Below, in pieces: positions 12,487 through 58,158 of a stretch of DNA of 58,158 nt. The notes beneath the pieces are model-generated. The model ran no database searches, was not told the origin of the DNA, and was given only the letters and a program-made list of their open reading frames with translations. Source of the DNA: a virus (Duplodnaviria > Caudoviricetes). Each line of letters opens with the position of its first letter. The first letter of the stretch is position 1. The DNA is taken from positions 1 through 58,158 of IMG/VR virus record IMGVR_UViG_3300011116_000399. One strand, given 5' to 3'. Position numbers and translations under genes: made by a program.

Positions 12487-12767
12487 ACGACCCAAGAGAT
12501 ATAGCCGCATACGCCGCAGAATTGGTCTCAGGAGACCGACAGGACGCCTATGGGCATCCGCTTGATAACTTTACCCGTGCCTCAAAGATATGGTCTGTAA
12601 TCCTCGGCTGTGAGGTTTCTGCCGAGCAGGTTGCCCTTTGTATGGTCGGAATGAAGGTAGCCCGTGAGGTCAATCAATCTAAGCCCGACACGGTGGTAGA
12701 TGGGATTGGCTACTTCCTTACTCTAGGCATGATTCAGGAAGAGCGTCTAAGAAGGTTGAATTCCTAA
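12483..12767 (+). CDS. DUF6378-like protein (putative nucleotide pyrophosphatase-related)
   Basis: GDR...YG.P.DNF....IWS...QVALCM...K..R...D..VD..GY; ATG 12483. Confidence 0.75.
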
Positions 12768-24044: not shown

Positions 24045-24074
24045 TTGACAGACTAAACTAGGGTTTAGTATCCT
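24045..24074 (+). promoter_or_regulatory. Replication-operon promoter with operator in the spacer
   Basis: TTGACA...TATCCT; CTAAAC-TAGG-GTTTAG palindrome. Confidence 0.75.
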
Positions 24075-37829: not shown

Positions 37830-38753
37830 CTAGGGTTTTACAACCTCGGTAGGCACAGCCATGAGTCCGAGCGCAACCGTCGCCCATAGGTCAGGGGTTT
37901 CCGTATCGGGCTGGTATCCACCCGCTCCACCTAGAAGGATTGGATGCTCGGGGAACTGCTCTCTAATCAGGCGCATAGCCTTGAAATAGCCATCCTTGGT
38001 GTATTGCAAGGATGAGAGTGGGTCATTGGCTAGACCATCGGCTCCACACGCTACGAAAATCATCGTAGGCTGGAACTCGTTGCAAGCCTCGAGGAATCCC
38101 TCAGTAGCAGATAACAATTCTGCATCGCCTGACTTTGATGCAAGCGGGAAGTTATAGGCAAGATGTTTCCAATCGCTAATCAATCCCGTGCCTGGAAAAA
38201 TCCCATACTCATGAACTGAGTAAGTTAGAACATTTTTGTTCTTCTTTAACAGCATTTCAGTACCGTCACCATGGTGAGCATCGCAATCAAAGATAGCGAC
38301 CCTATGGTCATAATCTTGAGTTGCTCTAGTTGCGGCAATAGCAAAATCATTGAACACACAAAAACCGCTTGAGTAGTCACGCATTGCGTGATGCTTTGCA
38401 CCAGCAAAGTGAACAGCCAATTTAGTTTTGTAATCAATCAAAGCATCGAGAGCAGTCAAAGTACCGCCAGCAAACAACTTGGCTAAATCACCTAGGTCGT
38501 GGCGTTGTCCCATCCATTCACTTGATTCACCTCGGACAGTTACATCGAAAACATACTCCATGTCATGAACTAGATGCAGGTCATCAGTAGATGGCATCTC
38601 AGGTTCAATCTCCCAAACATTTAATCTACGGTCTTGCGCTCGCAACATAAGTTGATTACGAGCATGGAGAAACCTCCGCCCCTGAGTTGGGTGCGTCTTG
38701 TCAAAAACCCAATTCGCATACTCAGGCGAATGAACTAATACTGCATGTTCCAT
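37830..38753 (-). CDS. Zn-dependent deacetylase of the histone deacetylase/AcuC family
   Basis: HP....R, GAKHHA, SGFC.FND, D.DAHHGDG, GADG...DPL, GGY. Confidence 0.92.
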   Translation of the reverse strand: MEHAVLVHSPEYANWVFDKTHPTQGRRFLHARNQLMLRAQDRRLNVWEIEPEMPSTDDLHLVHDMEYVFDVTVRGESSEWMGQRHDLGDLAKLFAGGTLTALDALIDYKTKLAVHFAGAKHHAMRDYSSGFCVFNDFAIAATRATQDYDHRVAIFDCDAHHGDGTEMLLKKNKNVLTYSVHEYGIFPGTGLISDWKHLAYNFPLASKSGDAELLSATEGFLEACNEFQPTMIFVACGADGLANDPLSSLQYTKDGYFKAMRLIREQFPEHPILLGGAGGYQPDTETPDLWATVALGLMAVPTEVVKP

Positions 38754-42195: not shown

Positions 42196-42310
42196 TCAAA
42201 ATAGCGTAGCCAACAATTCCTTTTGCAACACCATCAAGAACAATCCAAGCAACAAACATTCCTAAGAGTGTCCAAAGTTGTCCTATGATGTCATTAAAAA
42301 ATGCTTTCAA
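42143..42310 (-). CDS. Small two-TM membrane protein (55 aa)
   Basis: TTG overlapping the upstream TGA; [17 protein letters not shown]. Confidence 0.7.
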
Positions 42311-44508
42311 GGTTTTCTCCTATATCCGACGCTTCCAATGGAAGCAGTCACTATTGCGTTGCTGGCGATATTGCCAACAATCGTTGCGGCAACAATCGTC
42401 TTAGTTGCCTCATCTCTTTCTTCTTCTGACATATCTGCTCCGAGATTTCCAAGAGCAAAAATAAGTTGAGCAGGACTCTCAAATATCGCTTGCAGAATTT
42501 CTGCTGGAGATTCAAGAAGTTGAAGAGCATCAGCAACAACGGCAGTAATTATGACAGCATTGCCATTTTCATCTTCTCTGACCTCAACAGGTGTAGCAGG
42601 TGGAAGGTCGGCTAAAGTAATTCCTGCTTCAGCAATAGCCTCAACAGTTACCGCTTCTCCTGCAAAAGATTCAATCAAAGCCTCGGCTACAAGTTCTTTT
42701 TCTGATTCTGTAAAGGTTCCATCCTCACTTAATTGTTCGGAAAGATTATTGACTTCATCTTGAGTAATTTCTCCATCCGCCGATAGTGCGTCGATTATCT
42801 CTTCGGCATCAGCGGGTGTAATATCGCCACCATCTAAAATGTCGGAGAGTATTTCTTCAACAATCTCGGAGGTGTCTAATGATTCAGAAGGTTGTTCTGT
42901 CGGCTCTAATTCTTCTTGGGGCGTGGCTTCTTCTTCATTTGATTCAGAAGTAGGTTCATCTAATGGTGGTTGTTCAGGTGTTTGATTTGTCGGGTCAGAT
43001 TCCTCTTGGTTTTCGGAAGGTTCATCCTGAGGTTCTTCGGAAGGCTGAGGAGTTGGCTCAGGCTCGGGGGTCGGTTGAGGTTCAGGGGTCGGTTCGGGTG
43101 TCACTTCAGGACTTGGACTTGGCTGAGGTTCAGGGGACGGAGTGGGAGTGGGTTGAGGCTGTGGGTCGGGAGTCGGCGTTACCGAAGGGGTATCGATTGG
43201 ACTCGGAGCAGGGCTTGGTACAGGATTTGGTTCAGGTGACTGAGATGGAATTGGGGTAGGCGATGGCGAAGGTGTGGGTTCAGTTGTGGACGGCGAAGGT
43301 TGCGGGGTCGGTTCAGGTTGAGGAGTCGGAGTTACGACAGGTTCAGGGCTTGGAGTCGGCGAAGGCGTTGGTTCCGATGTTGGTTGAGATTCGGGAGAAG
43401 GAGTGGGAGATGTTGCCGACGGTGTTGGTGAAGGAGTCACCGTTGGTTCAGGTGTCGGACTTGGAGAAGGCTGAGGAGTTGCTTGAGGTGTTGGAGCCGT
43501 GGCGGGATTAGCGTCGCCATATTCAAGAATTACTTCTAAGCGTTTAACAATTCCACCACAAGGGTCACCAAAGATTTGATTGATTGCTTGAATGACAGCA
43601 TTGTTTTTTCCAAGAAAAATTTCGGAAACTTTTGCTACTGAGTTAGCCGCATGGCATTGAGCATTGATTACATAATTTTCAGGAAGTCCATAACTAGCAA
43701 AAATTACATTTGTAAAAATCTTTCCGATTGGTGCAATTAAATTTAAGGAGCCACCTTCACCTACCGTACCATTTACCTGATTAGAAGGAGTAGTCGATGG
43801 AGTGGTTGTTGCTGTTGGGCTTTCTGATGGGATGGGTTGTGGGCTTGATTCAGGGGTCGGCTCAGGAGAAGAGGTTGGCTCAGGAGTTAAAGTGGGCGAA
43901 GGCGAAGGCTCGGGTGTTGGAGTTGGACTTGGCTCGCTGGTCGGAGAAGAACTCGAAGTGGGCGAAGGAGATGGTTGAACAGTTGAAGTCTCGGACGGAG
44001 ATGGAGAAGTCGTTGCAGTCGGAGTATCAGATGTCGGAGTCGGCGAAGGCTCAGGCGTTATCGAAGGGGTGGGCGTGGGTGTTGGGGCAGGAGAACTCAC
44101 CGAGACAGTAAAGATTGGTCCGTACCATCCAGCCCAAAATCCATTATCGATACCCGAAACATTGATAACAGTTTGACCCGAGGAAACAACACTTACAGAA
44201 GTTGCTTCGATTGAATTACCGCTAAAACTTTGACCGTTGATTGAAACGCTCCAACTATCAGCAATAGGAGTACAACTACCAATACAGTTGGCGATGGTGT
44301 TATTGATTGAGACGGTGACAGTTGAACCGTCGGCGACATTGATTCGATTATTAGCGCTACCGCCTCGATAGTCGAATTGGATTGAGTCGCCCGAGATATT
44401 GCCATTTACCACCTGTTGCCAAGTACCGTCGGCGCTTGCCGAGTCGGTAGGCAAAATCGTCCACCAAAAGGCGAGGCTACAAATTAGGAAAATACGCCAA
44501 ATACGCAG
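42307..44508 (-). CDS. Secreted/membrane-anchored Pro-Thr-rich protein with a SUEL-type lectin domain (probable CTG start)
   Basis: AGGAG-7 nt-CTG gives signal peptide [26 protein letters not shown]; FASYG.P...CHA.NS...FGDPC....K.L.V; C-terminal hydrophobic segment plus RRK. Confidence 0.85.
42960..44100 (-). repeat. Low-complexity (PT/PS/PE)n coding repeats flanking the lectin domain
   Basis: Degenerate PTPSPEP repeats; locally GC-rich. Confidence 0.85.
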
Positions 44509-48995: not shown

Positions 48996-49298
48996 ATGGC
49001 AATATGGGTTGATTTCTTTACAGAGAAATTACAAGGCTCAAAAGTTGTTGTTGATTCAAACGGTAAGCCATATATCTCAAAGGAGATTGCTCCAAAAGAA
49101 TATGTGGAGATTGAATTGAACATCTCACAACAGTTCTTGCCTTATCACATCTATTTCCGCCGTTACGATGCCAATGGCAATGAGTTAGAGAATCGTCTCT
49201 TCGCTCAAGTTGGTGATAGGGATTTGGCTCTTAAATCTTTCAATGACTTAACTTCCAAAAGAATTAACTCTTTTGAGTTGGTCTTGGACGGAGAATAA
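48996..49298 (+). CDS. Hypothetical protein
   Basis: 100-aa ORF with own promoter-like region. Confidence 0.7.
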   Translation: MAIWVDFFTEKLQGSKVVVDSNGKPYISKEIAPKEYVEIELNISQQFLPYHIYFRRYDANGNELENRLFAQVGDRDLALKSFNDLTSKRINSFELVLDGE

Positions 49299-49332
49299 AA
49301 GAGCAAAATTCGCTTAACGGTATAATCGACGG

Positions 49333-49491
49333 GTGTACGATAACCTTTCGCCGAACCGTGATGGTGTCGTCTCTATGCTCGGGGCTTTTGCTATACAGTC
49401 TCACGAATTATATTCGGAGTTGGTGAACGCAGGGTTCAACGAGCAACAGGCAATTTCTATCGTTGTTGGATTAGCCAATAAAGATAAATAG
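49333..49491 (+). CDS. Small helical protein (52 aa, leaderless)
   Basis: TATAAT-6 nt-GTG; HELY..LV.AGF.E.QA. Confidence 0.65.
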   Translation: MYDNLSPNRDGVVSMLGAFAIQSHELYSELVNAGFNEQQAISIVVGLANKDK

Positions 49492-49507
49492 TAGTCGAGA
49501 GGTATAG

Positions 49508-50947
49508 ATGGCAGACAAACCAACCCCCGATTTAACTGAACTCGGAGCCACGGGTTTACGCCGTTCAGGTGGAACGGTCTATGAAGAATTCTTAGTAAAT
49601 CTACGAGGTATTCGTGGCGCAAAAGTTTATCGAGAGATGGCGGACAATGACCCAACCATCGGCTCAATGTTATTCGCAATCGAGAAAGTTATTACCCGTC
49701 TTGAATGGCGTGTAGACCCATACTCAGATAATTCTGAAGATGGAGAGATTACTAAAGAGGATAAAGAAGTAGCGGCGTTCGTAGAATCTTGCTTAAACGA
49801 TATGTCAGATTCTTGGGATTCAACACTATCCCAAATGTTGTCGATGTTAATTTTTGGTTATTCATATCATGAGATTGTTTACAAAGTTCGAGGCGGAGAT
49901 GTAAACGACCCACAGAAAAATTCTAAGTTTAATGATGGTCGTATTGGCTGGCGCAAAATGCCAATCCGTGCCCAAGAAACTTTATTTAGATGGATGATGG
50001 ATGAAGATGGTGGCATCCAAGGAATGATTCAAGTAGACCCATCAACGGGTGGAACTCACGCTATCCCGATTGAGAAATCTTTGTTATTCCGTACATCTTC
50101 ACAAAAGAATAACCCTGAAGGTCGTTCTATTCTTCGTAATGCTTACCGCCCTTGGTATTTCAAGCGCCGTATTGAAGAGATTGAAGCAATCGGTATTGAG
50201 CGTGACTTAGCAGGTTTGCCAGTTGCTTATGTACCACCTGAGTTCTTATCTTCAACAGCAACCGCAGAGCAAGCGGCAGTTCTAGCATCAATCCAAAATA
50301 TCGTTACCTCTATCAAGCGTAATGAGCAAGAAGGAATTGTTATGCCTTCTATGTACGATGATGCTGGACATAAAGTATTTGATTTAGTTTTATTATCATC
50401 AGGCGGAAGCCGTCAGTTCGACACAGACAAGATTATTCAAAGATATGACCAAAGAATTTCTATGTCTATCCTTTCAGACTTTATTCTTCTTGGCTCTGAC
50501 CGAGTTGGCTCATACGCTCTTGGAACCTCCAAGATGGATTTGTGGTCAATGGCAGTTGATTCAATCGCTAAAAATATCGCTGAGGTAATGAACCAATATG
50601 CGATTCCAAGATTACTAAAACTTAACGGAATGAATCCATCCCGTGCCCCTTATCTAACTTATGGTGAAGTAAGCCATGTTGATTTGAACGAAATCTCAGC
50701 CTTTGTTTCTAACTTGGCTCAGGTTGGCGTACTTGTTCCTGACCCTAAGTTGGAAGAGTATCTACGAGACTTGGCTGGATTACCACCTGCTGAACACGAT
50801 GGACAAAATTTTGGTATGCCTCCAATGCCTGAAGGTATGGGAATTCCTCCTGCACCTGAAGAAGCCGATGGCGCTGGTGAAGAAGAATTACCTCCACCTC
50901 CACCAACACCTGAAGGATTGAATCCACCCGCACCTGAAGTTGGTTAA
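49508..50947 (+). CDS. Portal protein (DUF935-like)
   Basis: Y.EM...D..I, NPEG.S.LR.AY.PW.FK, GSYALG; precedes MuF. Confidence 0.88.
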   Translation: MADKPTPDLTELGATGLRRSGGTVYEEFLVNLRGIRGAKVYREMADNDPTIGSMLFAIEKVITRLEWRVDPYSDNSEDGEITKEDKEVAAFVESCLNDMSDSWDSTLSQMLSMLIFGYSYHEIVYKVRGGDVNDPQKNSKFNDGRIGWRKMPIRAQETLFRWMMDEDGGIQGMIQVDPSTGGTHAIPIEKSLLFRTSSQKNNPEGRSILRNAYRPWYFKRRIEEIEAIGIERDLAGLPVAYVPPEFLSSTATAEQAAVLASIQNIVTSIKRNEQEGIVMPSMYDDAGHKVFDLVLLSSGGSRQFDTDKIIQRYDQRISMSILSDFILLGSDRVGSYALGTSKMDLWSMAVDSIAKNIAEVMNQYAIPRLLKLNGMNPSRAPYLTYGEVSHVDLNEISAFVSNLAQVGVLVPDPKLEEYLRDLAGLPPAEHDGQNFGMPPMPEGMGIPPAPEEADGAGEEELPPPPPTPEGLNPPAPEVG

Positions 50948-50949
50948 AG

Positions 50950-51957
50950 ATGCCGTTTCGTTTTGCGAAAGCCGAAAGACCTAGGCGCATACCTTTAACA
51001 CCTCAAGAGCAAGCCTTGGCTCGCACACTTTTTGAATCTATTCAGCGAGCCACAGATAGCATCTCTCTTCGACAGTTAGAGAGTTTGCTTCGTAATCTTG
51101 ACCCACAAACTTTAGAAAGATTGTTGAATTCAATAACAATCGCTAATCAAAAAAAGATTCAAGATTCTTTATTATCCTCGATTGATATTGGTGGTAATGA
51201 AGCAATCAAACAGATTAGAGAGATTGCACCTAAGTTAGCCCTACCTGCATTTATACCAACCAAGGTAAAGATAGAAAACCGTCCAGCAATGGCTAACATG
51301 GAGTTCACAAAACTTCCTGCGTGGGCACAATCTAAACAACCTAAAGTTGAATTCAAAATGTCATTCAATAAAACAAACCCAAACTCTTTAGCCTTTGCTC
51401 AACGCCGTGCTGGTGAACTTATTACATCTATTGACACATTAACCCGTGAATCAATTCGTCGAACAATTATTGACGCTTTTAATGAGCAGATAGATTACCG
51501 AGCCGCCGCTAGAAGAATTAAAAATGTTGTTGGGTTGCATCCACGATGGGCTGATGCAGTTACTAAATTTGAAAAAGATGAGTTTGCTAGATTACTTAAA
51601 CGAGGATTAAAAGAAGAAGTTGCTCGGGCTAAGGCTATGGATAGAGCCACTAGATATTCAGATTCTCTAAAGAGTAAAAGAGCAACGATGATTGCTAGAA
51701 CCGAAATTCAGATTGCTCAAAACGAGGGACGCTACGAAGGATGGAAGCAAGCGGCTGAAGAAGGTTATGTTGATGTTGAGTCACAGAAAATGTGGATTAT
51801 TGCTCAAGATGAACGCACCTGTGAAATTTGTACAGAATTAGATGGAGAAGTTGTTGGTTGGAATGAACCATTTTCTAGCGGTGATGAAACTCCAGGCAGG
51901 GTGCATCCTAATTGTCGTTGCACCATGGTAATCATTCCACCTGAGAGACGCTCATGA
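50950..51957 (+). CDS. MuF-like minor head protein
   Basis: RA.MIARTE, K.W....DERTC..C..LDG, HPNCRC. Confidence 0.92.
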   Translation: MPFRFAKAERPRRIPLTPQEQALARTLFESIQRATDSISLRQLESLLRNLDPQTLERLLNSITIANQKKIQDSLLSSIDIGGNEAIKQIREIAPKLALPAFIPTKVKIENRPAMANMEFTKLPAWAQSKQPKVEFKMSFNKTNPNSLAFAQRRAGELITSIDTLTRESIRRTIIDAFNEQIDYRAAARRIKNVVGLHPRWADAVTKFEKDEFARLLKRGLKEEVARAKAMDRATRYSDSLKSKRATMIARTEIQIAQNEGRYEGWKQAAEEGYVDVESQKMWIIAQDERTCEICTELDGEVVGWNEPFSSGDETPGRVHPNCRCTMVIIPPERRS

Positions 51958-53258
51958 GTATTACTCTCACATTCCCTGCTGGCTATAAGCCAGTTCTTAA
52001 GCACGGTGAACACGACCAAAGTTCTCATGGTAGTTGGGCGCACGGAAATTCTTCATTGCAAAAAGAGTATGCGGGATTGAGGGAAAGCGGAATTATAGAA
52101 AATGGAAAATACTACCCTGAGTACGATTCCGTAGCGACATCAGGCTTTGACCCCTCTAAATACTCAAGACCTTATGACCCAAGGGCGCTGACTAATGACG
52201 CCAAGGTTCATTCAGGTCCTCAGTTACGAGAAATAATTCAACAACTTATGGATAGGGAAGAATATACCCCTGAAATACAAAAAAAAGTTGAGGAAATTTC
52301 TAAAAGTTTTTTAACAGCCAATTTAGAAAATGTACAAACTTATTTTGAACAAGAAGCGGCAAAACAGAATTTAGGCGCAACAAATTCTAAGATTTATGTA
52401 GCGGGTCAGACTCAAAGATTATCTAACTACCTTGATGCTAATAATGCAGAAGTTAGATATGAAATTGCAAAAGCCATCTATCCCCTCCTTGGCGAATTAC
52501 GAGGTATGCAATTAGGTAATTATTTACAAAATCACGAAAGAGTAACAAAGGAAATTCAAGAGAATGTTTCCAAGGGATTTCCCGTCATAGCCGTTGATTC
52601 AAGAGATTTTGAAAAAGTTTTAACAGATGGTAGATTTAAGTCACAATTTGAGTCAAATAAAAGTGGGGGAATGTACGATTTAGGCAGGAGAAAAATCGAA
52701 GAAGTAGAGCAAGGAATTCCAGTAAACAGTAAATTGAAGGATAGACCAATTTACGGATACCTTGCAAGCCAACTATCTGTTGATGAAAATTCTGCAAGAG
52801 ATGTAAATAACGAAAAACCTACCAATACATTTACCGTGAACACAAGCCGAGTAGAACAATATGGCGACTTAAGGGTATTATTAAATGATGATGTAAAAGA
52901 AAGAACCACTTATACTTTAAGAGATTCTTTACAACAAGGCTCACTTCCACAACCCTTGTCCGAGAAAGTGACTAGAGATAATCTTGTAACTGCGGGTTTA
53001 CATGCGAGAAGTTCCTATGGAAGCGGCGGTAAACATACAAGCGAGTATGTTGAAGTACAAATCAAAAATGGTGTAAAAGTTACAGATATTAAACAAATTT
53101 ATATTGTTAGTCGAAGTAGTGATTCACAAGACAGGGAGCGTCGAGTTAATGAGGTTAAAAGCATGTTGAGTGCTTCAGGTAATACAAATTTAATTGATAA
53201 AGTTAAATTTTTACCCGCAGAAAAAGATGGTTTGTCAGATTATGGGTGGTCAGATTAA
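51954..53258 (+). CDS. Head-cargo effector 1: His tag plus DUF3626-like domain (possible ADP-ribosyltransferase fold)
   Basis: KHGEHDQSSHGSW; GRFKSQFE...SGG, RP.YGYL, QYG, RTT.T..DSL, YVEVQI. Confidence 0.75.
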   Translation: MSITLTFPAGYKPVLKHGEHDQSSHGSWAHGNSSLQKEYAGLRESGIIENGKYYPEYDSVATSGFDPSKYSRPYDPRALTNDAKVHSGPQLREIIQQLMDREEYTPEIQKKVEEISKSFLTANLENVQTYFEQEAAKQNLGATNSKIYVAGQTQRLSNYLDANNAEVRYEIAKAIYPLLGELRGMQLGNYLQNHERVTKEIQENVSKGFPVIAVDSRDFEKVLTDGRFKSQFESNKSGGMYDLGRRKIEEVEQGIPVNSKLKDRPIYGYLASQLSVDENSARDVNNEKPTNTFTVNTSRVEQYGDLRVLLNDDVKERTTYTLRDSLQQGSLPQPLSEKVTRDNLVTAGLHARSSYGSGGKHTSEYVEVQIKNGVKVTDIKQIYIVSRSSDSQDRERRVNEVKSMLSASGNTNLIDKVKFLPAEKDGLSDYGWSD

Positions 53259-55280
53259 ATGGACAATACGCTCAATATAGAAAAAGGCACCGTTTTATAC
53301 AAACGCTCAGATGGTAGTGAGATTGTATTTACAAAAATGGATGATGAAGATTTCTACGGTTTTGTTCGTAATCCCAAAGGTAAAGTTTTTGAAGAACAAT
53401 TATTAGGGTCGATACTTCGTCGAGGTGATTGGGAAGCCACCTATGAACCTGTGAAAAAGCACGGTGACCACGACCAATCAACCCATGGTGCTTGGGCGCA
53501 TGGCGTTCAAGTAGCCCCTGAAAAGATTCGAGAGGCTATCCAGCAAGTCAAGGACAATGAAGGTCTGACCATCGATATGAAAGATGGGGATATGCCCAAA
53601 ACGGGCTTTACCGTGGCTAAGGGTAAGAAATTCGCCGAAATCGTCAAGGCTGAGGATTTCTATGGGGAAAAAGGCGAGGAGATTCTGACTTCCTACCTAA
53701 AACAATACAGGTCAGAACTTAATAAAGAGAATAACTACCTCGGTTTATGGCATAATAAGAAAGATGGACAGGTTTATCTTGATGTTTCTGAAAACATCCA
53801 AGATGAAACGGAGGCTATAAACCGTGGTCGTGACAGAGACCAAATCTCAATATGGGATGTAGTAAATCTAAAAGAAATACCAACAGGAGGTACAGGTGCC
53901 ACAAAAACTAGAAGTAGTCAAACTTCCCGATTTGTCAAAGATGACAGACGAGCAGATAGAAGCATACGCCAAGGAGATTTGGGCGAAGTTAGCAAAAGGC
54001 AAGAACGAGTCAAAGTAATTTATTTTGATTACGGATTAAAACCCGTATTCAAACATGAAGGTCACGAAGACCAGTCAAGCCACGGTAACTGGGCTAGAGG
54101 ATTTACTGAGCAAGAACAATCTCGTATTGAGTCTATGGACAAAGTTGGTCCATCAAAAGATGATTTAAGTAGATTACTAAAAGGCAAAAAAGAATATACC
54201 GACGAAGATAAAACTCTTGTCGTAGAAAATGATTCTGATTTATATGCCGATGCAACTCAAGATATTGATTCTAGGGTTGAGGAAAGACTTGCTCGACTTC
54301 AAGCAGAGTTTCCAAATCATGTTTATACAGAACAAGAAAAAGCAACTATCTATGAGGACACACAAAGAGACATGGTTGCTGAATATGTAGATTCCAATAG
54401 TGAGACATTAGACGAATATCTCCAAGCAAGCGAGGGAGATTCTTTTGACCCTCAAGAATCAATCGATTCATTCCAAGATGTTTACGGTGTAAGCCATACT
54501 GGAACAACTAGAGATGGAAGAGAAGTAACCCTAAGTGCGAATGTTGGCGATGTTAGCGCCGACGGTTACAACATTTATATTCGTGGAGATGTTATTAGTG
54601 ACGATGGAAATTTGGCTGGAGAGTTTGAGCGACGCATTTTTCAAAAAGACGGAGTTTGGAATGTTGAACACGCAGTCTTGAGGTTAGATGATGAATACCA
54701 AGGTACGGGTTTTGGTAAAGAGTTTATTGAGCAATCAGAGGCTTGGTATACCGCTAAAGGTTTTGGTTTCATCGAAGTTGGAACAGCATGGGACGGCGCT
54801 CGCCATTGGGCTAGAGCGGGGTATGACTGGAAGCCTGACAGAGTTTCAGAAAACTTAGATAACATTTCTCAAAGAGTTGCTTCTATGGTCGATGAGGATA
54901 GTGGCTGGTTCAAAGAGGGTTCTCCCGAAAGAATTGAGTTTGATAATTTAATGTCAAGAGCAACAAACGAATACAGCCCTTATTTTGAAGATGAAAGCGG
55001 ATATAAGTATCCCGCTTTTAGTTCAGTCAAAGATTTGAAAGCAGATGACTTCCCACTACCTGCTCATTTTGCAAACATTGGATATTCAAAAGAAAAAGCA
55101 GAAGAAGTTGGTACTTGGGCTGGTAAAGAATTGATGTATGACTTGAGAATGAAATACACGAAGTCATTAACCGCTGAGGGACAAAAACTCTTACAAGGTC
55201 CTATTGACCTTGACGGGGATGGATTGGTTTATGATGGAACAGCCCGTGAAAAGCCAGCACCAAGTAGCGCAAAGAACTAA
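53259..55280 (+). CDS. Head-cargo polyprotein 2: small N-domain, tag plus unknown domain, tag plus GNAT acetyltransferase, DGDG tail
   Basis: Tags at 53457 and 54051; GNAT motif A YQGTGFG and G..HWARAGY. Confidence 0.8.
   Translation: MDNTLNIEKGTVLYKRSDGSEIVFTKMDDEDFYGFVRNPKGKVFEEQLLGSILRRGDWEATYEPVKKHGDHDQSTHGAWAHGVQVAPEKIREAIQQVKDNEGLTIDMKDGDMPKTGFTVAKGKKFAEIVKAEDFYGEKGEEILTSYLKQYRSELNKENNYLGLWHNKKDGQVYLDVSENIQDETEAINRGRDRDQISIWDVVNLKEIPTGGTGATKTRSSQTSRFVKDDRRADRSIRQGDLGEVSKRQERVKVIYFDYGLKPVFKHEGHEDQSSHGNWARGFTEQEQSRIESMDKVGPSKDDLSRLLKGKKEYTDEDKTLVVENDSDLYADATQDIDSRVEERLARLQAEFPNHVYTEQEKATIYEDTQRDMVAEYVDSNSETLDEYLQASEGDSFDPQESIDSFQDVYGVSHTGTTRDGREVTLSANVGDVSADGYNIYIRGDVISDDGNLAGEFERRIFQKDGVWNVEHAVLRLDDEYQGTGFGKEFIEQSEAWYTAKGFGFIEVGTAWDGARHWARAGYDWKPDRVSENLDNISQRVASMVDEDSGWFKEGSPERIEFDNLMSRATNEYSPYFEDESGYKYPAFSSVKDLKADDFPLPAHFANIGYSKEKAEEVGTWAGKELMYDLRMKYTKSLTAEGQKLLQGPIDLDGDGLVYDGTAREKPAPSSAKN
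53896..54018 (+). CDS. Nested overprinted 40-aa gene (candidate partner/immunity protein)
   Basis: AGGAGG-5 nt-GTG; MPQKLEVVKLPDLSKMTDEQIEAYAKEIWAKLAKGKNESK. Confidence 0.65.
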   Translation: MPQKLEVVKLPDLSKMTDEQIEAYAKEIWAKLAKGKNESK

Positions 55281-55299
55281 ACTGGGGTATAATTAGATT

Positions 55300-55461
55300 A
55301 TGAATAGACGAGAGACACAAAAGGCTATCCAAGAGGCTTATGCAAAATGGTCTGAGAAGGTGGAATTTACCTCTGAGACTGGAGCATCCGATAAAGACGA
55401 GTCTGAGATTATGGCTCAGATTTCAACCATACTTCAAGGAAATAAACCGCAGTCAGAATAG
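55300..55461 (+). CDS. Leaderless 53-aa protein (candidate GNAT partner)
   Basis: AACTGGGG-TATAAT-6 nt-ATG right after the GNAT gene. Confidence 0.7.
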   Translation: MNRRETQKAIQEAYAKWSEKVEFTSETGASDKDESEIMAQISTILQGNKPQSE

Positions 55462-55480
55462 TGTGCGCTATTCTTAGAAC

Positions 55481-57124
55481 ATGGCGGATATAGCACCGAA
55501 ACTTATTCATCTAAGCGCTGAGAAACTCAATGCGCTACATGAGCGTGTCCATAAGTCTGAGGCTACCCCTGCAACTATCGAGGTTCACCACACCATCCTC
55601 AATGAGATGGCTAGGCGCAAGATGGAACGCCCCCAAGATGATTGGGATAAGTACGAGATTTTAATTGATTCAATCGATAATGTAGACCTGACAAGTATTG
55701 GTGGATTATCAGCCGATACAGTTCTTGATGTTATTAAATCCACGGGCGACATCGTTGGAAATATAAAAACCTTTTTGACTATCCATGGCTATCAAATGCG
55801 TATTGAGCCAGTTGAAAAACGGATTCAACAAGAGGGTAGTAAATGGGTTGTTTACAACGAAGAGGGAACTCAGAAATTTGGAAGTTATGAAACAAAAGAA
55901 GAGGCTGAAGACCGTTTGCGCCAAATGCACATGTTCAAAGCCGATGATACTTACACGCCACCAAAGTCTGTAAGACAAGCGGCTCAAAGAGCAATCGAGT
56001 GGATTGGTGAAGGTTTTGCAGGTCAAGGATTTACTTCAACTGGTCGAGTTCGAGCAGGTCAATTAGCCCGAGGCGAAGCAGTATCTATTCAAACTCTAAA
56101 GCGTATGAAGTCTTTCTTCTCACGCCATGAAGTTGATAAAAAAGCAAAAGGTTTTAATCGTGGCGAAGAAGGTTTTCCTAGTGGTGGTCGAGTTGCATGG
56201 GACGCTTGGGGTGGCGATGCAGGATTCGCTTGGGCTGAAGCAATGGTTTCAAGATACGAAAATCAACAAGGGGTAAAAAAACATGAAGGACACGAAGACC
56301 AATCCGTCCACGGAAGTTGGGCTACTGGAGTTGGTAGTGGAAAAGATGAGAGTTCAAATGGTCGTCCCGCTTTATCACCTGACAAAAAGCCAAGTGCAGA
56401 ACGAAGCCCTGACGCAGTTAAGCAAGCCGAGAGATTACGAAGAGATGCTGAGGCAGTTGAGCCAGTAATTACAGGCTTGATGGAAGGTATTGCTAAAAAT
56501 ATCAATGCGGATTTCGCTGAGGTAGATGGCAAAAGTTCTTTAACGGAAAGACTTAAATCTACTGATTCTCTTGCTCGCAAGATTGATGCAGATGCAGAAA
56601 AAGACCATGGTGGCGATAGGGAGAAAGCGGCTAACGCAATTTCTGATGCAGTTCGCTATACATTAAATGTTGATGAATCTGATTACACAGACGGTGTAGA
56701 AAAAACTCTTGACACATTAAAAGAAACTGGTTGGAAAGTTGAATCAGTTAAAAACTTTTGGCAAGCAGGTGACCCTTATGATGGCACCAACATTAAGTTA
56801 AGCAAAGAAGGCGTCAAAGTAGAACTTCAATTACATACTCCAACATCTCATAAAATTAAAGAAGTTGGATTACATGATGATTACGAAAAATATCGTGTAT
56901 CAAAAGATGACAATGAACGCAGAAATCTTTGGGACAAAATGACCGAAACTGCTAAATCCATTCCACGCCCTGCCAATATGGGCAAACTTTTAAGTATTGG
57001 CACTCTAGTTGTGCAAACTTTTGAGACTGCTCAACAGGCTGGCTTGGTAAAATCAACTGGGGTTGATATAATATGGAGAATAACGAGAGAGGGTGTAGCC
57101 GTATGCGGTATTTTGCAAAACTAG
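55481..57124 (+). CDS. Head-cargo polyprotein 3 with C-terminal RelA/SpoT-like nucleotidyltransferase
   Basis: RLKS..SL.RK, I.D.VRY, Y.G.N, ELQ.HT, H..YE..R; tag at 56279; RA.QLA...AW..WGG domain. Confidence 0.85.
   Translation: MADIAPKLIHLSAEKLNALHERVHKSEATPATIEVHHTILNEMARRKMERPQDDWDKYEILIDSIDNVDLTSIGGLSADTVLDVIKSTGDIVGNIKTFLTIHGYQMRIEPVEKRIQQEGSKWVVYNEEGTQKFGSYETKEEAEDRLRQMHMFKADDTYTPPKSVRQAAQRAIEWIGEGFAGQGFTSTGRVRAGQLARGEAVSIQTLKRMKSFFSRHEVDKKAKGFNRGEEGFPSGGRVAWDAWGGDAGFAWAEAMVSRYENQQGVKKHEGHEDQSVHGSWATGVGSGKDESSNGRPALSPDKKPSAERSPDAVKQAERLRRDAEAVEPVITGLMEGIAKNINADFAEVDGKSSLTERLKSTDSLARKIDADAEKDHGGDREKAANAISDAVRYTLNVDESDYTDGVEKTLDTLKETGWKVESVKNFWQAGDPYDGTNIKLSKEGVKVELQLHTPTSHKIKEVGLHDDYEKYRVSKDDNERRNLWDKMTETAKSIPRPANMGKLLSIGTLVVQTFETAQQAGLVKSTGVDIIWRITREGVAVCGILQN
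57055..57105 (+). promoter_or_regulatory. Internal promoter/operator driving the protease gene
   Basis: AACTGGGGTT-GA-TATAAT inside the 3' end of the RelA-like gene; GAGAGG SD; ATG 57103. Confidence 0.7.
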
Positions 57125-57834
57125 GCGCAAACAACGAAGCGGTAAACATCTATCGTTTCGAAGTAGGCAATACCACTATTACCGAAGACAGATGGGATTC
57201 AAGAAAAAATTCTTGGGTAAATAATCCTGATGCAGATGTTGTTGGATATTTAACTCAAGGCGAAGGCGATTTTCAGGAACTTAGTGAAGATGTAGCCCGT
57301 CAAATTTTTCCTCAAGCATTTACCGAAGAGGCTACAAAGGCTTTAGGTAAATTTGATTTACAAAAAGCCGAGGGCGAAAAGCGTTACACACTTGGCGCTA
57401 TGTATATCCCTGATATGGAAGATGCTCATGGAGAATGGACAGATTCAGATGAATTACAAAGAGCAGTTTGGGATTATGTAAGAAGCAATGACCGCCGTAT
57501 TCGTTTACAACATAATAAAGATGTTGTTGCTGGTGAATGGGTAGAAGTCATGGCTTTTCCATATTCACTAACAGTTCCAATCAAAACTCCTGAGGGTCAA
57601 GAGATGCAACATACCTATCCGCCTAACACAGTTTTCCTAGGAGTTATTTGGGAGCCTTGGGCTTGGGAAATGGTAAGCGAAGGAAAGATTCGTGGATACT
57701 CTATTGGCGGAAAAGCCGAGAGATTATTTGTCGATATTGATGTTGAAAAAGGCGACCCAACAGTCTCCGATGTACATGTTGATACAATAATGTCTCCCTC
57801 AAAGAAAAAGCCAAAGAAGGAAGAAAATAAATGA
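57103..57834 (+). CDS. XkdF-like prohead serine protease with an extra N-terminal ~75-aa domain
   Basis: D.HGE...EL..A, QH....AG..VE, WE.V..G...GYSIGG. Confidence 0.85.
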   Translation: MRYFAKLGANNEAVNIYRFEVGNTTITEDRWDSRKNSWVNNPDADVVGYLTQGEGDFQELSEDVARQIFPQAFTEEATKALGKFDLQKAEGEKRYTLGAMYIPDMEDAHGEWTDSDELQRAVWDYVRSNDRRIRLQHNKDVVAGEWVEVMAFPYSLTVPIKTPEGQEMQHTYPPNTVFLGVIWEPWAWEMVSEGKIRGYSIGGKAERLFVDIDVEKGDPTVSDVHVDTIMSPSKKKPKKEENK

Positions 57835-58158
57835 AAAAAGACCTCAAAATTTTAGGCGAACTCCGCAAAGGACCTTTGGCTGGTATGGACGAGGACGAGT
57901 TCAAAATGATTGAGGCAGATGTAAAAAAGTTTGGTTTTAAGGGTTTGAGCGGTTATGCAAAGTCAATGGTTATGGAAGCACAGCGTCGTTTGGGTTTTGC
58001 AATTAACAAAGCCCTAAATGATTTACCTTTTAACAAAGCGGTTTCAGTTGGTGACATGGTTTCATGGCAATCATCAGGTGGCAGAGCAGCAGGCAAAGTT
58101 TTAAGAATTGCTCGCTCAGGTCGCATCAATGTTCATGATTCATCTTTTAACATCCAAG
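57831..58158 (+). CDS. 5' part of the junction-spanning DUF2945-like head protein (continues to 298)
   Basis: ATGA-coupled to the protease; in frame with 5..298. Confidence 0.8.
   Translation, partial: MKKDLKILGELRKGPLAGMDEDEFKMIEADVKKFGFKGLSGYAKSMVMEAQRRLGFAINKALNDLPFNKAVSVGDMVSWQSSGGRAAGKVLRIARSGRINVHDSSFNIQ
57968..58158. repeat. Second copy of the terminal overlap
   Basis: Matches 1..191 with 2 mismatches. Confidence 0.97.

Follow-up and report, generated by a model that had tools for sequence, protein, structure and literature searches.

A candidate immunity domain for a phage-borne alarmone synthetase at the N-terminus of the prohead protease

The head-module toxin gene and the prohead protease

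We analysed a phage (Duplodnaviria; Caudoviricetes) represented by the IMG/VR virus record IMGVR_UViG_3300011116_000399. The window, as we call the whole stretch of DNA analysed, is the complete record of 58,158 bases, with a completeness estimate of 96% and a terminal repeat in which the last 191 bases equal the first 191. The subject of the present work is two overlapping genes of its head module, one encoding a 547-residue protein that ends in a small alarmone synthetase (SAS) domain and the other encoding a prohead protease with an extra N-terminal domain (N-domain), which is a candidate immunity domain for that synthetase. The genes of the head module are ordered portal (49508–50947), MuF (Phage_Mu_F, a gene of its own at 50950–51957), three large proteins of 434, 673 and 547 residues, and the protease, followed past the wrap of the record by a scaffold-like protein and the major capsid protein.

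The gene of the 547-residue protein (55481–57124, plus strand) encodes a carrier part (residues 1–285, phrog_2859), a junction motif (KKHEGHEDQSVHGSWA) and the C-terminal SAS toxin domain, for which residues 331–547 (56471–57121, plus strand) were used in alignments and structure prediction. Alarmone synthetases share the motif set RxKxxxSxxxK, DxxR, Y-x-G and ExQxHT. The corresponding segments RLKSTDSLARK, SDAVRYT (DAVR), GDPYDG (PYDG) and VELQLHT (ELQLHT) of the 547-residue protein aligned with their counterparts in the solved alarmone synthetase 8vx3 (SaSAS/SaEAS), and the motif residues were invariant across 14 relatives. The overall match covered residues 353–502 of the protein and residues 50–201 of 8vx3_A (E 2.6e-15), and the Pfam family RelA_SpoT (PF04607) scored 14.2 bits over residues 357–467 (E 0.056), below its cut-off of 27. 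In the available part of PMC12691689, SaEAS is described as synthesizing (p)ppGpp/(p)ppApp rapidly and as being toxic if kept in the cytoplasm. A genome-contig scan with the SAS alignment gave no match, and PADLOC matched neither the toxin protein nor the protease.

A further match, to phrog_7625, covered residues 311–503 (E 4.1e-25) and was made via the C-terminal part of that profile, the N-terminal part of which matches the separate MuF protein of the window. Thus phrog_7625 is a MuF plus SAS fusion family of the Apk2 kind, and, as judged from these profile matches, its two halves stand on different genes in this phage; by Pfam, the toxin protein has no MuF domain, Phage_Mu_F being found on the separate gene. 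The carrier part is 51–94% identical among relatives, in which it is joined to a SAS domain, to a Zeta_toxin domain or to no toxin. Its long form has an extra ParB-like middle domain, a short form also exists, and each of the two occurs with both toxin types. A motif, KH(G/E)xH(D/E)Q(S/K)xHGxWA, is repeated in the 434-, 673- and 547-residue proteins and again past the record wrap (window positions 52011, 53469, 54051–54104, 56279–56332 and 312), and is also present in L082 and other related loci. In relatives it marks the exact junctions between the carrier, ParB-like and toxin domains, and it may be a processing or targeting site of head proteins.

The toxin gene overlaps the protease gene by 22 nt. 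The protease open reading frame spans 57073–57834, with the conserved start at ATG 57103 (MRYFAK...); the in-frame ATG at 57073 is not kept among relatives. A ribosome-binding site, GAGAGAGGG (57085–57093, plus strand), lies 9 nt before ATG 57103, where relatives carry GAGAGGAGG. Residues 1–73 (57103–57321, plus strand) form the N-domain, the candidate SAS-binding immunity domain, which we refer to as the MRYF family. It is followed by a linker (residues 74–90, TEEATKALGKFDLQKAE; 57322–57372, plus strand) and by an XkdF-type prohead protease domain (residues 86–207; 57358–57723, plus strand) that matched Peptidase_S78_2/XkdF (PF14550) with 44.2 bits against a cut-off of 24 (E 2.3e-11) and is 74–100% identical across relatives. 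The conserved protease part starts in the linker at K.LG.[FY]..KAE, and this point, at which all N-domain variants as well as one fusion lacking an N-domain (L120, see below) meet the shared protease sequence, forms the cassette boundary. An initial annotation, made from the letters of the DNA alone, had already read an extra N-domain set apart from the catalytic domain by TKA and LQKA, and the residues that it quoted are indeed present, with TKA at residues 77–79 and LQKA at residues 86–89.

The N-domain belongs to no Pfam family (residues 1–73) and has no PDB sequence relative (best E 0.73). An AlphaFold (AF2) model built from 24 sequences had a pLDDT of 93.1 and a pTM of 0.80, showing a small sheet packed on helices, and a Foldseek search against the PDB gave no match at E≤0.001. 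We conclude that MRYF is a new small protein family, which may inhibit alarmone synthetases. Protease matches were obtained in 44 records of the phage collection, all confined to the protease part (the earliest from residue 47) and all devoid of the N-domain; thus the N-domain is not a general feature of XkdF proteases. Several of these proteases, from Arthrobacter, Lactococcus and Rhizobium phages, bear a different N-terminal part, with RNA ligase or methyltransferase as its annotation.

Joint exchange and predicted binding of the toxin domain and the N-domain

Viral-contig scans with the protease and with the toxin carrier part returned 156 and 167 related stretches respectively, and 80 loci were kept from each. 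At least 900 nt of sequence before the protease domain was available in 115 loci, which reduced to 69 distinct sequences, many loci being one contig fetched twice. A SAS toxin domain together with the MRYF N-domain was found in 62 of the 69, a Zeta_toxin domain together with a different N-domain of ~85 residues, predicted to be helical, in six, and neither toxin nor N-domain in one (L120). Discordant pairings of toxin and N-domain were absent (0/69). The Zeta_toxin assignment was clear, as in L082 (Pfam E 1.2e-23, 84 bits against a cut-off of 22.3). In L120 (3998–5962), the carrier with its ParB-like domain continues in frame directly into the XkdF protease, and this locus is either a natural carrier–protease fusion or an assembly artefact. 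Had the N-domain occurred on proteases irrespective of RelA, as the initial annotation had allowed for, the antidote reading would have been refuted; it was instead absent from the 44 collection records and replaced wherever the SAS domain was replaced.

On a tree of 56 distinct protease domains (identical proteins collapsed and three of 70 rows with fewer than 140 domain residues excluded), the five Zeta rows need four changes, of which at least three are forced by well-supported branches; L082 (Zeta) and L064 (SAS), for example, are sisters with support of 100/99. On the evidence of this tree, the toxin domain and the N-domain have been swapped together at least three times independently. 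Among 51 non-identical loci, N-domain identity correlated with SAS identity (Spearman 0.87) more closely than with the identity of the protease domain to which it is fused (0.53), and identity to the window averaged 74% in the N-domain, compared with 92% in the protease domain. The unit of exchange thus begins at the junction motif before the toxin domain and ends at the linker after the N-domain, rather than spanning the genes from start to end. Taken together, the comparison of relatives shows that toxin domain and N-domain form a single cassette in inheritance and in exchange, and supports the view that the N-domain behaves as a cognate partner of the SAS toxin domain.

SAS residues 331–547 (14-row alignment) and the N-domain (24-row alignment) were then co-folded in three runs alongside three controls. 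The median ipSAE was 0.75 (0.72–0.84 among runs), against 0.00 for the best of the three controls, with a partner pLDDT of at least 85 and at least 73% of the contacts common to the runs. In calibration, 58 of 80 solved complexes reached the mark applied, as did 2 of 110 mismatched pairs; this calibration is only rough here as own alignments were used. On the SAS side, the predicted interface comprises D59, D101-P102-Y103, G105, K109 and Q120, which belong to the catalytic motifs, together with an adjacent helix of invariant residues; on the N-domain side it includes YL..GEGD, the most conserved segment of this domain. The co-folding that the initial annotation had proposed thus supports binding, with the N-domain placed by the models over the catalytic cleft of the SAS domain. 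This outcome is unlikely to come from the memory of the predictor, since the N-domain has no sequence relative in the PDB. The predicted mode is the same as that of the immunity proteins IapK and Tis1, which occlude the acceptor site according to the available part of PMC12226406.

The promoter-like site and neighbouring genes

A promoter-like site, TTGGTA-17-TGaTATAAT (57044–57072, plus strand), lies in the last codons of the toxin gene and is composed of a −35-like hexamer, a 10-mer and an extended −10 element, the 10-mer (AACTGGGGTT; 57055–57064, plus strand) being located between the two hexamers. This is the sole site in 49000–58158 that scored 10/12 plus TG, and promoter-like sites as a class are not enriched in that region (15 found, 19.8 expected). 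The 10-mer, which has the palindromic arms AAC...GTT, is present in the window in six exact copies and in 22 copies with at most one mismatch, compared with 3.9 expected, and none of 100 shuffles reached 22. Approximately 12 copies abut a −10-like hexamer, beyond which come a GAGAGGAGG-type ribosome site and a start codon, with the 10-mer in either orientation (AACCCCAGTT-TGATATACT or AACTGGGGTT-TATAAT-like). Examples on the plus strand are those at 24056, 35165, 35802, 37206, 40274, 41161, 44580 and 55280, and on the minus strand those at 12766, 38775, 41267 and 46324, and such places are densest at 35–47 kb. The copy at 55280–55289, with one mismatch (AACTGGGGTA), is followed by TAATTAGAT and an ATG, and lies upstream of a 53-residue open reading frame and the toxin gene. 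A 20-mer and the TG-TATAAT-GGAG pattern taken from the site do not recur elsewhere, the shared element being the 10-mer just upstream. The 10-mer looks like a promoter or operator signature of the phage's own.

The element is kept in the last codons of the SAS gene in all 39 distinct upstream sequences from relatives. It reads AACNGGGGTT in 32 of them and is flipped to AACCCCAGTT in the remaining seven, which come from the most distant loci; in three of these seven, GATATACT comes after the flipped form, and Pro is encoded in place of Gly. Retention of a DNA element in spite of its being flipped is hard to explain by coding constraint alone. All six Zeta-type loci lack the element, which thus forms part of the SAS cassette and is something that the protease can do without. 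As far as sequence can tell, a promoter of the phage's own class probably fires at 57044–57072. The TATAAT promoter with an 'early operator' that had been proposed for the last codons of the RelA-like gene thus stands as regards the site and the recurrent 10-mer, and its label 'early' is unfounded, since the motif is also found at genes of the structural region (12766 and 24056). Expression of the antidote ahead of the toxin, proposed there as well, stands as a mere possibility; a one-mismatch copy of the same motif also precedes the toxin gene. In one metatranscriptome (X17), contigs of relatives 90–99% alike cover 29 of 30 bins, and one contig of 256 nt spans 57034–57289; the transcript start and strand cannot be read from these contigs, and DNA carry-over is possible, so that they do not bear on the promoter.

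The gene 3′ of the protease (57831–58158, continuing at 192–298) encodes a Hva1_TUDOR-like domain, which was below the cut-off in the truncated window copy and was detected with E 3.1e-7 in the gene that follows the protease in L082 (4541–4951). Some relatives carry a second, longer paralogue of this gene, with DUF5824. Further away, a histone-deacetylase-family protein (37830–38753, minus strand; Pfam E 1e-57) sits behind a motif promoter, and a 714-residue protein (42307–44454, minus strand) gave a weak SUEL-lectin match below the cut-off (E 8.9e-7). Neither an integrase nor a resolvase was found in the record, estimated as 96% complete, and the phage may therefore be non-temperate. Megablast against the phage collection gave no match. 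DNA of the stretch was found mostly in lake, river and freshwater metagenomes, and the phages concerned are abundant uncultured freshwater phages. Their hosts are likely to be acI Actinobacteria, given these habitats and the presence of an N-domain homologue in a metagenome-assembled genome (MAG) of Candidatus Planktophila.

Readings of the N-domain and comparison with known systems

We consider it likely that the 547-residue protein is a virion-borne polymorphic toxin and that its cognate immunity resides in the 73-residue N-domain of the protease, which binds over the catalytic cleft and keeps the synthetase off in the producing cell. No alternative antidote was found in the phage when an HD_4 alarmone hydrolase and a second MRYF copy were looked for. 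That an antidote is tied to an essential morphogenesis enzyme, as the initial annotation had proposed, is partly supported: the lack of discordant pairings, the joint swaps and the co-fold speak for it, the homologues without a nearby SAS (see below) speak against it, and the antidote reading as a whole is supported by comparison and stops short of proof.

Established knowledge of polymorphic toxins and prohead proteases suggests how such a module might work. The conserved N-terminal part would package the toxin protein in the head, and the N-domain would hold the synthetase inactive late in infection, a stage at which packaging would halt if ATP were lost. Through its fusion to the protease, the N-domain would be made together with the head proteins and be packaged with them into the procapsid, where the protease would remove the immunity domain, so that the toxin would be armed only in the sealed head. 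The promoter motif of the cassette would let the antidote be transcribed independently of the toxin gene, and, more speculatively, the antidote could be remade from this promoter after injection. In its full form, the N-domain would be a self-removing safety catch that silences the toxin in the producer, enters the procapsid with the protease and is destroyed there, an armed toxin then being injected into the next host; we put this forward tentatively, as a possibility that we regard as rather doubtful. If it were true, the incoming phage would end a short toxic pulse by remaking the antidote from the cassette promoter, and hosts and rival phages would have captured MRYF genes against the injected toxin, the copy in the Candidatus Planktophila MAG being an example.

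MRYF homologues do exist outside this clade of phages. A phmmer search with residues 1–80 against 1.84 billion representatives returned 26 proteins at E≤1e-3, comprising 12 stand-alone proteins of 68–82 residues, six with the domain before a Cys-rich domain plus one with the reversed order, one glycerate-kinase fusion, fragments, and a 771-residue repeat protein that is probably spurious. On these sequences, the N-domain is a real module that also occurs separately. Among the stand-alone forms are a cluster (P0022) on contigs of 10–20 kb, P0014, whose contig measures 57 kb, and P0013, on one of 42 kb. When viral contigs were scanned with single homologues, the stand-alone proteins P0006, P0014 and P0013 retrieved no relatives, and P0019 and P0022 brought back fused forms adjoining SAS only. 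The commonest fusion partner outside the clade is a Cys-rich domain of ~150 residues (KCFKWWCEECK...HVIKISFPNV...SRPNW) without a Pfam family (carriers P0002, P0009–P0012, P0017 and P0003; loci L168–L191), and in 25 metagenome loci with MRYF homologues the MRYF domain was fused to it or adjoined it. One locus, L190 (1–2564), has the order integrase fragment, MRYF-like gene, HNH gene, Cys-rich protein and another MRYF gene, and the end of its Cys-rich protein is similar to the Zeta-type N-domain (31% over 32 residues). In the Candidatus Planktophila MAG (L194, 901–7544), a gene for an MRYF–Cys-rich protein follows a kinase-helicase and a protein with a phospholipase D (PLD)-like HxK motif, both read from the sequence. 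The arrangements in L190 and L194 are reminiscent of orphan immunity gene islands, and the outside copies may be orphan or captured immunity genes or may reflect a wider role of the domain.

Several observations weigh against the immunity reading. No SAS came up in the 25 metagenome loci when these were searched by tblastn with three SAS domains, and the Candidatus Planktophila MAG likewise had no SAS match in its genome. A large locus with an MRYF–Cys-rich gene (L175) looks like a phage replication or recombination region, with T5orf172, SNase, HNH and YqaJ domains and a helicase, and Pfam and PDB searches on the neighbours of this gene gave no clue to a toxin. The neighbourhood search that the initial annotation had called for thus yielded the 12 stand-alone proteins and no SAS beside the homologues in the readable loci. 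The resemblance that it had drawn, to small proteins downstream of actinobacterial RelA/SpoT-type toxins, did not materialize, as no SAS was detectable in the 25 loci or in the one Planktophila MAG locus. The toxin domain and the N-domain are moreover contiguous, so one block replacement shifts both, and with at least three events only, the lack of discordant recombinants is suggestive and not decisive. In the co-fold, the pLDDT of the SAS domain was only 67–70, and both binding and inhibition are predictions. As for the immunity protein Tis1, the HMM of Tis1_ImmP (PF24154) had no hit at E≤10 in the window and none among the 24 sequences of the MRYF alignment, and a full-length structural alignment of the N-domain with Tis1 (VIA-align, 6ox6_B) was weak (Z 3.3, root-mean-square deviation 3.6, 61 of 76 residues aligned, rank 10) and tied with unrelated rows. 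Finally, the Zeta-type N-domain was modelled poorly (pLDDT 62) and, like the MRYF N-domain, had no Foldseek match, nor any sequence match; the generalization to the Zeta cassettes draws on context alone.

The evidence for binding would serve equally a cargo-loading adaptor or chaperone that brings the toxin to the procapsid via the protease, inhibition not being its main role. Such an adaptor shares with the immunity reading both the co-variation within the cassette and the co-fold, and the RNA ligase- or methyltransferase-annotated parts at protease N-termini elsewhere indicate that this position tolerates added modules. The expected trafficking determinant, however, is the conserved N-terminal part of the toxin protein, which is constant whichever toxin follows, and a predicted interface on catalytic residues fits an inhibitor and is needless for an adaptor; we therefore regard this role as unlikely.

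The homologues outside the clade raise another explanation, namely that MRYF is a general SAS inhibitor directed against host toxSAS defence, its place beside the phage's own SAS being secondary. Stand-alone or otherwise fused homologues in replication- or recombination-type regions of other phages, with no SAS nearby, are in its favour, and the interface residues of SAS are invariant in the family, so a broad target range is conceivable. Within the present clade, however, MRYF is found only where the phage's own SAS is present and is exchanged with it, which makes this quite improbable as the primary role; it is in any case compatible with cognate immunity rather than exclusive of it. Least probable is the absence of any functional link, in which the N-domain is a variable protease propeptide, its co-variation hitch-hiking recombination between homologous flanks that exist only at the junction motif and the protease linker on either side of the contiguous pair, and the co-fold a false positive of the kind given by two of the 110 mismatched pairs, since there are no discordant pairings across at least three events, the sole protease without a toxin partner (L120) also lacks the N-domain, the co-fold exceeds its controls by 0.75 with contacts at the active site, and a domain that is well folded (pLDDT 93) and found stand-alone is atypical of a propeptide.

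Cognate immunity, the reading that we prefer, bears on how a phage keeps a head-borne toxin harmless during assembly and then arms it. An antidote placed in the maturation protease would couple neutralization, packaging and arming to a single step of head assembly that is well understood. As far as the available parts of the sources go, polymorphic toxins of the head module with small downstream immunity genes, and virion-borne multidomain proteins with RelA/SpoT domains, are already known (PMC5576092; PMC12226406; PMC11699363; PMC5512222). In the related loci Zeta toxins also appear as phage head payloads. The literature covered, from which supplements and subscription journals were excluded, describes no prohead or maturation protease with an attached immunity or antitoxin domain, and no Zeta toxins as virion or head payloads.

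Polyvalent phage proteins (Iyer et al. 2017) are virion-packaged, multidomain and late-gene-encoded, with RelA/SpoT and ParB-like domains, and are presumed to enter along with the DNA and to undergo processing by a peptidase (PMC5512222, available part); no immunity partners are described for them in that part of the source. In the present phages, by contrast, the domains are spread over several smaller proteins, and the prohead protease bears the putative cognate inhibitor domain. The six Zeta loci recall the Zeta–epsilon and PezAT systems, the partner N-domain of ~85 residues being predicted to be helical, with low model confidence. Epsilon is a small helical protein. Unlike those systems, however, the partner N-domain had no sequence or fold match to any solved antitoxin. 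The context likewise differs from that of type II toxSAS modules, as it is a module of virion genes rather than a toxin–antitoxin operon.

A likeness to Tas1–Tis1, a (p)ppApp synthetase of the type VI secretion system (T6SS) with its immunity protein, lies in a protein of ~75 residues that binds a toxic alarmone synthetase, binding being predicted in the present case. At 74 positions, the Pfam model Tis1_ImmP is as long as the MRYF profile, and 11% of the members of a language-model neighbour cluster of the N-domain carry Tis1_ImmP (score 0.85). Together with the full-length structural alignment, these are three weak leads in one direction. We have not assigned the N-domain to Tis1_ImmP, as there was no HMM match and no PDB sequence match, and the structural score was tied with those of unrelated proteins.

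MuF toxins of temperate phages have a conserved N-terminal part and a swappable C-terminal toxin, alarmone synthetases among them, in the available parts of PMC5576092, PMC12226406 and PMC11699363. Apk2 MuF toxins are followed by the binder immunity IapK, which occludes the acceptor site (PMC12226406), and for the small immunity open reading frames downstream of MuF toxins, binding to the active site is predicted (PMC11699363), a source which, in the part available, calls the biological role of these toxins unknown. The present module differs from these in that its carrier is not MuF, its candidate immunity is a domain of the next gene rather than a free open reading frame, no alarmone hydrolase partner was found, the phage may be non-temperate, and a Zeta toxin is an alternative payload. 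Like the MuF toxins (Apk2 with IapK/Aph1 and Bxa with Bsi/BAH), however, it has its toxin in the head-morphogenesis module, with a swappable C-terminus and a predicted cognate binder immediately downstream.

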